Source: Escherichia coli
GTDB lineage: Bacteria; Pseudomonadota; Gammaproteobacteria; Enterobacterales; Enterobacteriaceae
Strand: one strand, 5' to 3'
DNA length: 48,307 nucleotides
Assembly (NCBI RefSeq): GCF_003334385.1
Contig: NZ_QOWN01000033.1
The position numbers and the translations under genes are program-made. Below are positions 38,782 through 45,570 of the stretch, piece after piece. Numbering within the stretch: position 1 is the first letter of the stretch; every line of letters begins with the position of its first letter. The notes under the pieces were generated by a model. It saw nothing but the letters and a program-made list of their open reading frames with translations, had not been told where the DNA came from and ran no database searches.

Positions 38782-40155
38782 ATGGCACTTTGGGGCGGGC
38801 GTTTTACCCAGGCAGCAGATCAACGGTTCAAACAATTCAACGACTCACTGCGCTTTGATTACCGTCTGGCGGAGCAGGATATTGTTGGCTCTGTGGCCTG
38901 GTCCAAAGCCCTGGTCACGGTAGGCGTGTTAACCGCAGAAGAGCAGGCGCAACTGGAAGAGGCGCTGAACGTGTTGCTGGAAGATGTTCGCGCCAGGCCA
39001 CAACAAATCCTTGAAAGCGACGCCGAAGATATCCATAGCTGGGTGGAAGGCAAACTGATCGACAAAGTGGGCCAGTTAGGCAAAAAGCTGCATACCGGGC
39101 GTAGCCGTAATGATCAGGTAGCGACTGACCTGAAACTGTGGTGCAAAGATACCGTTAGCGAGTTACTGACGGCTAACCGGCAGCTGCAATCGGCGCTGGT
39201 GGAAACCGCACAAAACAATCAGGACGCGGTAATGCCTGGTTACACTCACCTGCAACGCGCCCAGCCGGTGACGTTCGCGCACTGGTGCCTGGCCTATGTT
39301 GAGATGCTGGCGCGTGATGAAAGCCGTTTGCAGGATGCGCTTAAGCGTCTGGATGTCAGCCCGCTAGGCTGTGGCGCGCTGGCGGGAACGGCCTATGAAA
39401 TCGACCGTGAACAGTTAGCAGGCTGGCTGGGCTTTGCTTCGGCGACCCGTAACAGTCTCGACAGCGTTTCTGACCGTGACCATGTGTTGGAACTGCTTTC
39501 TGCTGCCGCTATCGGCATGGTGCATCTGTCGCGTTTTGCTGAAGATCTGATTTTCTTTAACACCGGCGAAGCGGGGTTTGTGGAGCTTTCTGACCGCGTG
39601 ACTTCCGGTTCATCATTAATGCCGCAGAAGAAAAACCCGGATGCGCTGGAGCTGATTCGCGGTAAATGCGGCCGGGTGCAGGGGGCGTTAACCGGCATGA
39701 TGATGACGCTGAAAGGTTTGCCGCTGGCTTACAACAAAGATATGCAGGAAGACAAAGAAGGTCTGTTCGACGCGCTCGATACCTGGCTGGACAGCCTGCA
39801 TATGGCGGCGCTGGTGCTGGACGGCATTCAGGTGAAACGTCCACGTTGCCAGGAAGCGGCTCAGCAGGGTTACGCCAACGCCACCGAACTGGCGGATTAT
39901 CTGGTGGCGAAAGGCGTACCGTTCCGCGAGGCGCACCATATTGTTGGTGAAGCGGTGGTGGAAGCCATTCGTCAGGGCAAACCGCTGGAAGATCTGCCGC
40001 TCAGTGAGTTGCAGAAATTCAGTCAGGTGATTGACGAAGATGTCTATCCGATTCTGTCGCTGCAATCGTGCCTCGACAAGCGTGCGGCAAAAGGCGGCGT
40101 CTCACCGCAGCAGGTGGCGCAGGCGATTGCTTTTGCGCAGGCTCGGTTAGGGTAA
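38782..40155 (+). CDS. argH: Argininosuccinate lyase ArgH (457 aa)
   Basis: Full-length [36 protein letters not shown].... Confidence 0.96.
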
Positions 40156-40177
40156 GAACATTTATATGTATAAATTT

Positions 40178-40208
40178 GAGCCTGGCTTATCGCCGGGCTT
40201 TTTTATGG
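40178..40208 (+). terminator. Intrinsic terminator after argH
   Basis: GAGCCTGGC-TTATC-GCCGGGCTTTTTTAT. Confidence 0.6.
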
Positions 40209-40210
40209 CA

Positions 40211-40326
40211 AAAAAAAGCGGATCCTGGAGATCCGCAAAAGTTCACGTTGGCTTTAGTTATTCGAGTTGAGAAACTCTCGAAACGGGCAGTGACTTCAAG
40301 GGTTAAAAGAGGTGCCGCTCCGTTTC
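40211..40326 (-). ncRNA. oxyS: OxyS small regulatory RNA (about 109 nt) with its terminator
   Basis: Minus strand of 40218-40326 reads GAAACGGAGCGGCACCTCTTTTAACCCTTGAAGTCACTGCCCGTTTCGAGAGTTTCTCAACTCGAATAACTAAAGCCAACGTGAACTTTTGCGGATCTCCAGGATCCGC, matching my recollection of OxyS; the T-tract follows. Confidence 0.9.
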
Positions 40327-40354
40327 TGTGAGCAATTATCAGTCAGAATGCTTG

Positions 40355-40421: not shown

Positions 40422-41339
40422 ATGAATATTCGTGATCTTGAGTACCTGGTGGCATTGGCTGAACACCGCCATTTTCGGCGTGCGGCAGATTCCTGCCACG
40501 TTAGCCAGCCGACGCTTAGCGGGCAAATTCGTAAGCTGGAAGATGAGCTGGGCGTGATGTTGCTGGAGCGGACCAGCCGTAAAGTGTTGTTCACCCAGGC
40601 GGGAATGCTGCTGGTGGATCAGGCGCGTACCGTGCTGCGTGAGGTGAAAGTCCTTAAAGAGATGGCAAGCCAGCAGGGCGAGACGATGTCCGGACCGCTG
40701 CACATTGGTTTGATTCCCACAGTTGGACCGTACCTGCTACCGCATATTATCCCTATGCTGCACCAGACCTTTCCAAAGCTGGAAATGTATCTGCATGAAG
40801 CACAGACCCACCAGTTACTGGCGCAACTGGACAGCGGCAAACTCGATTGCGTGATCCTCGCGCTGGTGAAAGAGAGCGAAGCATTCATTGAAGTGCCGTT
40901 GTTTGATGAGCCAATGTTGCTGGCTATCTATGAAGATCACCCGTGGGCGAACCGCGAATGCGTACCGATGGCCGATCTGGCAGGGGAAAAACTGCTGATG
41001 CTGGAAGATGGTCACTGTTTGCGCGATCAGGCAATGGGTTTCTGTTTTGAAGCCGGGGCGGATGAAGATACACACTTCCGCGCGACCAGCCTGGAAACTC
41101 TGCGCAACATGGTGGCGGCAGGTAGCGGGATCACTTTACTGCCAGCGCTGGCTGTGCCGCCGGAGCGCAAACGCGATGGGGTTGTTTATCTGCCGTGCAT
41201 TAAGCCGGAACCACGCCGCACTATTGGCCTGGTTTATCGTCCTGGCTCACCGCTGCGCAGCCGCTATGAGCAGCTGGCAGAGGCCATCCGCGCAAGAATG
41301 GATGGCCATTTCGATAAAGTTTTAAAACAGGCGGTTTAA
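40422..41339 (+). CDS. oxyR: LysR-family peroxide-sensing regulator OxyR (305 aa)
   Basis: ORF contains [44 protein letters not shown]... and the redox cysteines in HCLRD and GFCFEAG. Confidence 0.96.
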
Positions 41340-45202: not shown

Positions 45203-45330
45203 GATGTATCCTGAAAAATTAAAGTACGCGGCGATTGTAGGGATTGCTCATCAGATGTCCAGATCTTGATGAATTCCTATTTGTGAGCTACGTCTGGACA
45301 GTAACTTGTTACAACCTGTAGCATCCACTT

Positions 45331-45570
45331 GCCGGTCCTGTGAGTTAATAGGGAATCCAGTGCGAATCTGGAGCTGACGCGCAGCGGTAAGGAAAGGTGC
45401 GATGATTGCGTTATGCGGACACTGCCATTCGGTGGGAAGTCATCATCTCTTAGTATCTTAGATACCCCTCCAAGCCCGAAGACCTGCCGGCCAACGTCGC
45501 ATCTGGTTCTCATCATCGCGTAATATTGATGAAACCTGCGGCATCCTTCTTCTATTGTGGATGCTTTACA
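45331..45570 (+). promoter_or_regulatory. btuB leader: adenosylcobalamin (B12) riboswitch
   Basis: Leader GCCGGTCCTGTGAGTTAATAGGGAATCCAGTGCGAATCTGGAGCTGACGCGCAGCGGTAAGGAAAGGTGCGATG... with B12-box-like AAGCCCGAAGACCTGCCGG (about 45473-45490) upstream of the btuB ATG. Confidence 0.85.

Follow-up and report, generated by a model that had tools for sequence, protein, structure and literature searches.

Two terminators placed tail to tail, one mapped and one predicted, between argH and the small RNA gene oxyS of Escherichia coli

Introduction

The genes argH, the last gene of argCBH, and oxyS, which encodes a small RNA, are transcribed towards each other in Escherichia coli, and both transcription units would come to an end within the same short intergenic stretch. 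This raises the question of whether the two transcripts stop at one common element, at two elements working as a coupled device, or at two independent terminators lying close together. OxyS, like its terminator, belongs to textbook knowledge, and terminators arranged tail to tail between convergent units are commonplace; in Hfq-dependent small RNAs such as OxyS, the terminator hairpin and the long U-tail also serve as the Hfq-binding 3' module. The induction of OxyS by OxyR under peroxide and its Hfq-dependent regulation of targets are established for the MG1655 oxyS (cited in PMC7815308 and PMC8825220), which is identical to the gene studied here, and oxyS is found in the gap between oxyR and argH throughout the Enterobacteriaceae (Jose et al. 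2022, PMC8825220).

Here, we analyse this site in an E. coli contig (NZ_QOWN01000033.1). The window, to which all positions refer unless stated otherwise, is the whole stretch of 48,307 nucleotides that was analysed. A previous sequence-only reading of it had described argH and OxyS as convergent units with back-to-back terminators that share a single A/T tract.

Materials and Methods

MG1655 coordinates were converted to window positions with an offset of +4,118,068. This offset is valid only from position 35524 onward, where the window and MG1655 become collinear, because the ppc-argE repeat region (window 35400–35627) is shorter in the window. In this region, the window lacks ~245 bp and carries one ~122-bp unit instead of the three of MG1655; a tandem-repeat search over positions 35000–36000 found no array in the window, and the difference in length corresponds to fewer copies there.

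Candidate terminators were located with a consensus terminator scan and folded, and the tail of each hairpin was scored on each strand with a T-weight of the d'Aubenton-Carafa type (T-score). As the loose consensus scan was unspecific, a stricter one was run over the whole 48-kb window on both strands, in which a hairpin of −9 kcal/mol or lower had to be followed immediately by at least six T. Mapped 3' ends were taken from the curated Term-seq lists for three conditions of Adams et al. 2021 (eLife; PMC7815308, supplementary file 1).

For the comparison among species, an exact-match scan with a 20-mer from the OxyS linker, using one genome per species, provided 43 enterobacterial loci. At each of them, the argH stop codon was located, the gap between argH and OxyS was extracted and the terminators were folded. 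Column-wise covariation on a MAFFT alignment was dropped because differences in loop length shift the 5' half of the stem by one column in Klebsiella and Raoultella; it was replaced by folding per species and a table of base pairs, whose OxyS part is blurred by an extra T-A pair present in some species and was used only qualitatively.

Results

Identity of the two convergent genes

The genes at both sides of the junction were confirmed as argH and oxyS by Rfam and by the RefSeq annotation, with the features listed in Table 1. The argH product is identical to that of MG1655 b3960 at 456 of 457 positions. OxyS matches Rfam family RF00035 over model positions 1–110 of 110, with 139.5 bits (gathering score 75) and E = 3.5e-29; transcription starts at 40326, the Rfam model extends from 40326 to 40217 and the U-tail reaches 40210, in agreement with the RefSeq oxyS feature of MG1655 (4158278–4158394). 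With this full-length match and zero base differences from MG1655 between positions 40156 and 40440, the likeness to the canonical small RNA that had previously been noted proved right. The oxyS gene sits in the gap between argH and oxyR (4156850–4158223 and 4158490–4159407 in the MG1655 RefSeq record), divergent from the latter. An 87-aa ORF on the plus strand (40068–40331) was rejected as spurious; it runs in another frame over the 3' end of argH and antisense through both terminators and OxyS.

Table 1. Features around the argH–oxyS junction, in window positions
Feature	Position	Strand	Evidence
argH CDS (argininosuccinate lyase), last gene of argCBH	38782–40155	+	457-aa ORF, collinear with MG1655 b3960
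Predicted argH-side terminator hairpin	40178–40200	+	Terminator scan, fold, homologous hairpins
T6 run, U-tract of the predicted argH terminator	40199–40204	+	Sequence; T-score 4.00
5-bp spacer ATGGC	40205–40209		Sequence; right edge (40209/40210) is a recurrent insertion junction
A8 on the plus strand, U8 tract of the OxyS terminator	40210–40217	−	Sequence, Term-seq 3' ends
OxyS terminator hairpin (third stem-loop)	40218–40236	−	Rfam structure line, terminator scan, fold
OxyS small RNA	40210–40326	−	Rfam RF00035; RefSeq ncRNA oxyS b4458
oxyR CDS	40422–41339	+	RefSeq; divergent from oxyS, co-directional with argH

Outside the junction, the window is K-12-like yet distinct from MG1655, with 16 substitutions. 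Two of them are located within argH, a T for A at 39237 and an A for T at 39793 that changes Cys338 to Ser. Over positions 39200–39830, two mismatches remained even in the top match from a set of 5,426 complete E. coli genomes, so that no genome carried both substitutions. Private mutation, sequencing error or an introduced change could explain them.

Separate hairpins and U-tracts for the two strands

The argH stop codon (TAA, 40153–40155) is followed by 22 nt of AT-rich 3' untranslated sequence, so that the first hairpin, GAGCCTGGC-TTATC-GCCGGGCTT, starts 23 nt past the stop. Its arms (40178–40186 and 40192–40200) enclose the loop TTATC (40187–40191) and, in the consensus scan of the plus strand, form a stem of nine pairs, six of them GC and the outermost a G-T pair. 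The hairpin folds with −16.0 kcal/mol (z = −4.9; none of 200 shuffles was as good), and the first two T of the T6 run overlap its stem. This element thus combines the sequence features of an intrinsic terminator, with a GC-rich hairpin and a U6 directly after it, located 3' of the stop codon. The hairpin previously placed at 40178–40198 is indeed there, with its 3' side having been drawn 1–2 nt too short. On the other strand, the consensus scan detected a hairpin running from 40236 to 40218 followed by T8, whose sequence (GCGGATC-CTGGA-GATCCGC on the plus strand) forms a stem of 7–8 pairs before the U8 and folds with −12.4 kcal/mol (z = −3.8; 1 of 200 shuffles was as good). Scan, fold and the Rfam structure line agree with the previous assignment of this hairpin to OxyS, with the A-run as its minus-strand U-tract.

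The order along the plus strand is argH-side hairpin, T6, ATGGC, A8, OxyS hairpin. The idea that both terminators share one A/T tract does not survive this order, as T6 and A8 are separate runs with ATGGC between them and a U-tract accompanies each hairpin on just one of the strands. The argH hairpin scored 4.00 on the plus strand (argH sense) and 0.38 on the minus strand, the one met by OxyS read-through, and the OxyS hairpin scored 5.18 on the minus strand (OxyS sense) and 0.15 on the plus strand, the one met by argH read-through. A different situation is found elsewhere in the window between rpmE (plus strand) and yiiX (minus strand), where a single hairpin (9423–9436, within 9417–9443) lies between A6 and T7 and constitutes a bidirectional terminator, with T-scores of 5.00 on the plus and 4.24 on the minus strand. 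In addition, the argH hairpin is weaker on the minus strand (−11.1 vs −14.2 kcal/mol on the plus strand in the strand comparison), because the G-U pair 40183/40195 becomes an A-C mismatch. Since the T-scores are high on one strand only for each hairpin, the argH/OxyS site is made up of one unidirectional terminator per strand, the pair lying tail to tail with 5 bp between their tracts. Scan, folds and T-scores thus agree that each gene has an intrinsic-terminator hairpin and U-tract on its own strand, and coordinates and strands bear out the description of convergent units with terminators back to back.

The possibility that each hairpin acts as a second stop for read-through from the opposite side was also considered and rejected, for the OxyS hairpin facing argH transcription as for the argH hairpin facing OxyS transcription, on account of the two low T-scores together with flanks that are not conserved.

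Sites expected by chance

The loose consensus scan found 5 terminator-like sites in 3.5 kb, where 3.8 were expected from shuffles. The strict scan detected 6 sites in the window, two of them the argH and OxyS terminators, and each of 30 dinucleotide shuffles contained 2.8 ± 1.7 strict sites, without any convergent pair within 30 nt. A functionless, chance juxtaposition of hairpin and T-run motifs, to which the count of the loose scan might be attributed, has practically no probability against the strict scan, the fold z-scores of −4.9 and −3.8, the conservation of the module across genera with compensatory changes, and the mapped 3' end of OxyS, which already refutes it for that side.

Mapped 3' ends

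In the Term-seq lists, the primary OxyS 3' end lies on the minus strand at MG1655 position 4158279 in LB at OD 0.4 (~63,500 reads on average) and at position 4158280 for cells in M63 at OD 0.4 (~47,200 reads on average; PMC7815308). Both ends fall within the U8 tract, at its 7th (window 40211) and 6th (40212) U, respectively; hence, in two growth conditions, OxyS ends where the sequence-only reading had placed its U-tract. The length of OxyS measured from the mapped end is 115–116 nt, compared with 110 nt for the Rfam model and 117 nt for the RefSeq feature.

For argH, no plus-strand 3' end falls within the interval 4157900–4158499 in any of the three Term-seq lists, which are curated and hold the stronger ends only, nor does a listed Rho-termination region lie there, near argH (PMC7815308). 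The argH end is also absent from the lists in arginine-free M63, where the arg genes should be derepressed, and a literature search on an argCBH terminator returned no relevant report. With no argH 3' end in these lists, the argH terminator stays a prediction from sequence, with the transcript expected to end at ~40203–40206. Taken together with the OxyS end at 40211/40212, this would leave a gap of only a few base pairs, so the two transcripts should not overlap. The predicted and mapped ends lie ~6–9 bp from each other rather than the ~60 bp estimated previously, a distance that corresponds to the whole two-hairpin module (59 bp). From the geometry of the site, argH read-through would produce RNA antisense to OxyS and running in the same direction as oxyR, and oxyS read-through would be antisense to the 3' end of argH.

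The absence of a listed argH end also bears on whether the argH-side hairpin is a terminator at all, or instead a 3' stabilising stem-loop, a processing stop or a backup for OxyS read-through. A fold of −11.1 kcal/mol is retained on the minus strand, and the element is missing in Trabulsiella, in Pseudocitrobacter and in the long allele of E. coli described below. Nevertheless, in almost every genus the hairpin is followed by T6–T8 on the strand of argH, and no Rho-termination region is listed near argH. A role as backup for OxyS is opposed by the U-poor minus-strand tail (T-score 0.38), the lack of conservation of its flank and the A-C mismatch that replaces the G-U pair on that strand. We consider this set of readings very unlikely.

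Other features of the window

Two further convergent genes, oxyR and sthA, have coding sequences that overlap by 18 bp at their 3' ends (41322–41339). The primary 3' end of sthA in the Term-seq lists, MG1655 4159345 on the minus strand (PMC7815308), corresponds to window position 41277, inside the oxyR coding sequence, and follows a hairpin without a U-tract. The Rfam search also detected, above gathering scores, a cobalamin riboswitch upstream of btuB (45316–45505), the ClpQY (hslVU) promoter element (4463–4520) and an L31 ribosomal-protein leader upstream of rpmE (9132–9184), as well as a marginal match to ES036 at 10164–10205 (39.6 bits vs a gathering score of 37.6).

Conservation in the Enterobacteriaceae

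The two-terminator block, of ~59 bp, was present in the majority of the 26 loci at which only a short gap separates argH from OxyS, in at least seven enterobacterial genera: Escherichia, Citrobacter, Salmonella (arizonae and diarizonae), Klebsiella, Raoultella, Siccibacter and Franconibacter, in addition to two further Enterobacteriaceae. Across these loci, the argH-side hairpins fold with −10 to −18.5 kcal/mol and are followed by T6–8, and the OxyS hairpins fold with −10 to −14.8 kcal/mol; the A-tract of the block is A8–10, and it ranges from A7 to A10 in 35 tabulated loci. The spacer is ATGGC in E. coli, ATGC or ACGC in most other genera and GC in one Siccibacter; most block loci have 2–5 nt between the tracts, with a longer spacer of 15–18 nt in Franconibacter.

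Within the argH-side hairpin, the 3' half with its T-run (CCGGGC-T6) is nearly invariant, and the 5' half and the loop are variable. In the pair table, anchored at the T-run, several stem positions show alternative standard pairs that preserve the structure; for example, the fifth pair appears as T-G, C-G, G-C or T-A among species and the seventh as G-C, C-G or A-T. For the OxyS hairpin, a U-A pair of E. coli is replaced by C-G in other genera, a compensatory change. Among E. coli strains, S22EC has a G-U in place of a G-C pair in the argH-side stem (40184/40194), and one other strain presents A7 in place of A8.

Several lineages depart from this pattern. At the three Trabulsiella loci, the argH stop codon is located 8–9 nt from the OxyS A-tract and 39–40 nt from the linker 20-mer; no argH-side hairpin was found there, leaving argH with no recognisable terminator of its own. 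Pseudocitrobacter has no argH-side terminator either and carries other palindromic repeats in the gap. In E. albertii, the argH-side hairpin is degenerate (−1.3 kcal/mol), and in C. koseri the T-run is interrupted. Overall, the pattern fits two individually selected terminators that were inherited together, and the sequence comparison indicates that their close packing is the ancestral state in the Enterobacteriaceae.

Insertions between the two terminators

Of the 5,426 complete E. coli genomes, 3,554 gave a contiguous match to a 341-nt query covering the region. In the others, the match begins at 40210 or at 40217, inside the A8 tract. A 3.1-kb insert encoding a D-mannonate dehydratase (ManD) and a galactonate-type MFS transporter lies between argH and oxyS in 1,861 of the 5,426 genomes (~34%, at a coverage of at least 80%), and also in E. 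whittamii and two further Escherichia species; among the compared loci, it was found in two of E. coli and three of other Escherichia. In this allele, the A8 tract and the OxyS hairpin are intact and the K-12-type argH hairpin is absent; after argH come, instead, another hairpin (GCTCCCC...GGGGAGC) and also a palindromic repeat of REP-like type. Because the K-12-type hairpin is homologous to that of Citrobacter and Salmonella, the short allele is the ancestral one and the cassette an insertion-replacement. The MFS gene of the cassette runs into the OxyS terminator from behind: its stop codon is 39 nt from the A8/OxyS hairpin, and no intrinsic terminator is visible between them.

Other elements occupy the same gap at six Citrobacter loci. 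C. braakii and one C. amalonaticus carry a minus-strand gene for a secreted protein of 727–815 aa that has a lectin-like domain, and other Citrobacter carry an operon for a sugar ABC transporter, an L-ribulose-5-phosphate 3-epimerase and an FGGY kinase. Finally, E. coli M21170 has an ISApl1 copy exactly at 40209/40210, the same junction at which a kan cassette was placed experimentally, with OxyS still being detected (Adams et al., PMC7815308). These insertions, with the OxyS terminator intact, argue for independent terminators. The bases between the terminators are a natural "safe harbour" in which different sugar-utilisation cassettes and an IS element have been accepted with OxyS undisturbed, and this is useful for strain typing and for the choice of neutral insertion sites.

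Discussion

These observations are best accounted for by a pair of independent Rho-independent terminators, each of them unidirectional, that lie tail to tail, and we assign this reading a probability of about 0.88. According to it, the polymerase leaving argH on the plus strand would make the hairpin at 40178–40200 followed by U6, with release predicted at ~40203–40206, and the polymerase starting on the minus strand at the OxyR-activated oxyS promoter (40326) would make the hairpin at 40236–40218 followed by U8, with OxyS being released at 40212/40211. Neither hairpin is predicted to terminate transcription coming from the opposite direction. The OxyS-side terminator is established by its sequence, the family match, its conservation and the mapped 3' end, and the argH-side terminator, inferred from sequence and conservation, is the most plausible interpretation of the element found there. 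Their close packing is most likely the outcome of separate selection on each terminator, with hardly any DNA between the two that could be spared, and not a coupled device.

The main alternative is that both elements form a coupled unit, either because polymerases arriving from both sides run into or occlude one another, with argCBH transcription thereby modulating the formation of the OxyS 3' end or the reverse, or because the efficiency of each terminator depends on the A/T tract of the other one as downstream DNA. RNA polymerase has a footprint of ~35 bp, so that polymerases paused at both U-tracts would overlap sterically, and interference is possible when both units are induced. The spacing of 2–5 nt kept in most genera with the module points in the same direction, as do ends that lie ~6–9 bp apart, well within that footprint, and the collision-assisted termination that has been proposed for convergent genes of E. 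coli (Wang et al., bioRxiv 10.1101/2022.10.23.513370). However, ~34% of the E. coli genomes put 3.1 kb between the two elements and Citrobacter lineages separate them by 2.5 to more than 8 kb, in both cases with the OxyS terminator intact; the spacer grows to 15–18 nt in Franconibacter, Trabulsiella and Pseudocitrobacter dispense with the argH-side terminator, and OxyS was still obtained with a kan cassette at the junction (PMC7815308). Moreover, both elements are canonical intrinsic terminators, and sites of the collision class are described as unlike these. In our opinion, these data make coupling, in either form, improbable.

The retention in several genera of 4–5 nt of spacing with an AYGC spacer could reflect a constraint on the junction itself. 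A stronger version of this idea, that the ~45-bp block comprising the 3' half of the argH hairpin, T6, AYGC, A8 and the OxyS hairpin is kept because the terminators act as one unit, is one that we find hard to credit. If it were true, argCBH transcription under arginine starvation would tune the amount of OxyS or the length of its U-tail, and hence Hfq binding, during oxidative stress, and this cross-talk between argCBH and OxyS would no longer exist in lineages whose junction has received an insertion.

Returning to the two independent terminators, each can be compared with known systems. The small RNA is the canonical OxyS (RF00035; b4458), with the same sequence as in MG1655, an orientation divergent from oxyR and three stem-loops, the third of which forms the terminator together with the U8; we found no difference from it. 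Both elements resemble intrinsic terminators in general, with GC-rich stems of 7–9 pairs, loops of 3–5 nt and 6–8 U directly 3', just past a gene; the OxyS side shows no departure from this class, and the argH element belongs to it as a predicted, not a mapped, member. Bidirectional terminators made of one hairpin, such as that of rpmE/yiiX, are likewise located between convergent units and have an A-run and a T-run close together. They are defined by a single hairpin flanked by an A-tract and a T-tract, whereas the argH/OxyS site has two hairpins, with T-scores on the opposite strands of 0.38 and 0.15. The collision-type bidirectional regions detected by SEnd-seq also involve convergent pairs with very close ends; in a preprint's summary of Ju et al. 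2019 (bioRxiv 10.1101/2022.10.23.513370), they are described as unlike intrinsic terminators, in which they differ from the present site.

With respect to its origin, OxyS has been proposed to be what is left of an ancestral peroxidase gene, namely its 3' end and terminator, the OxyS terminator being derived from the intrinsic terminator of that gene and a region toward argH that varies between families (Jose et al. 2022, PMC8825220). An ancestral two-terminator block fits this published proposal, in which the terminator of OxyS was retained from an older gene (PMC8825220). That account does not include the conserved block of argH-side hairpin, spacer and A-tract, nor the insertion polymorphism found here, and both are minor additions to the known picture. 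In conclusion, the tail-to-tail arrangement of argH and OxyS is real and conserved, and also already known and ordinary; the labels "shared tract" and "bidirectional" do not apply to it, and the rpmE/yiiX hairpin of the same window provides the true case for comparison.
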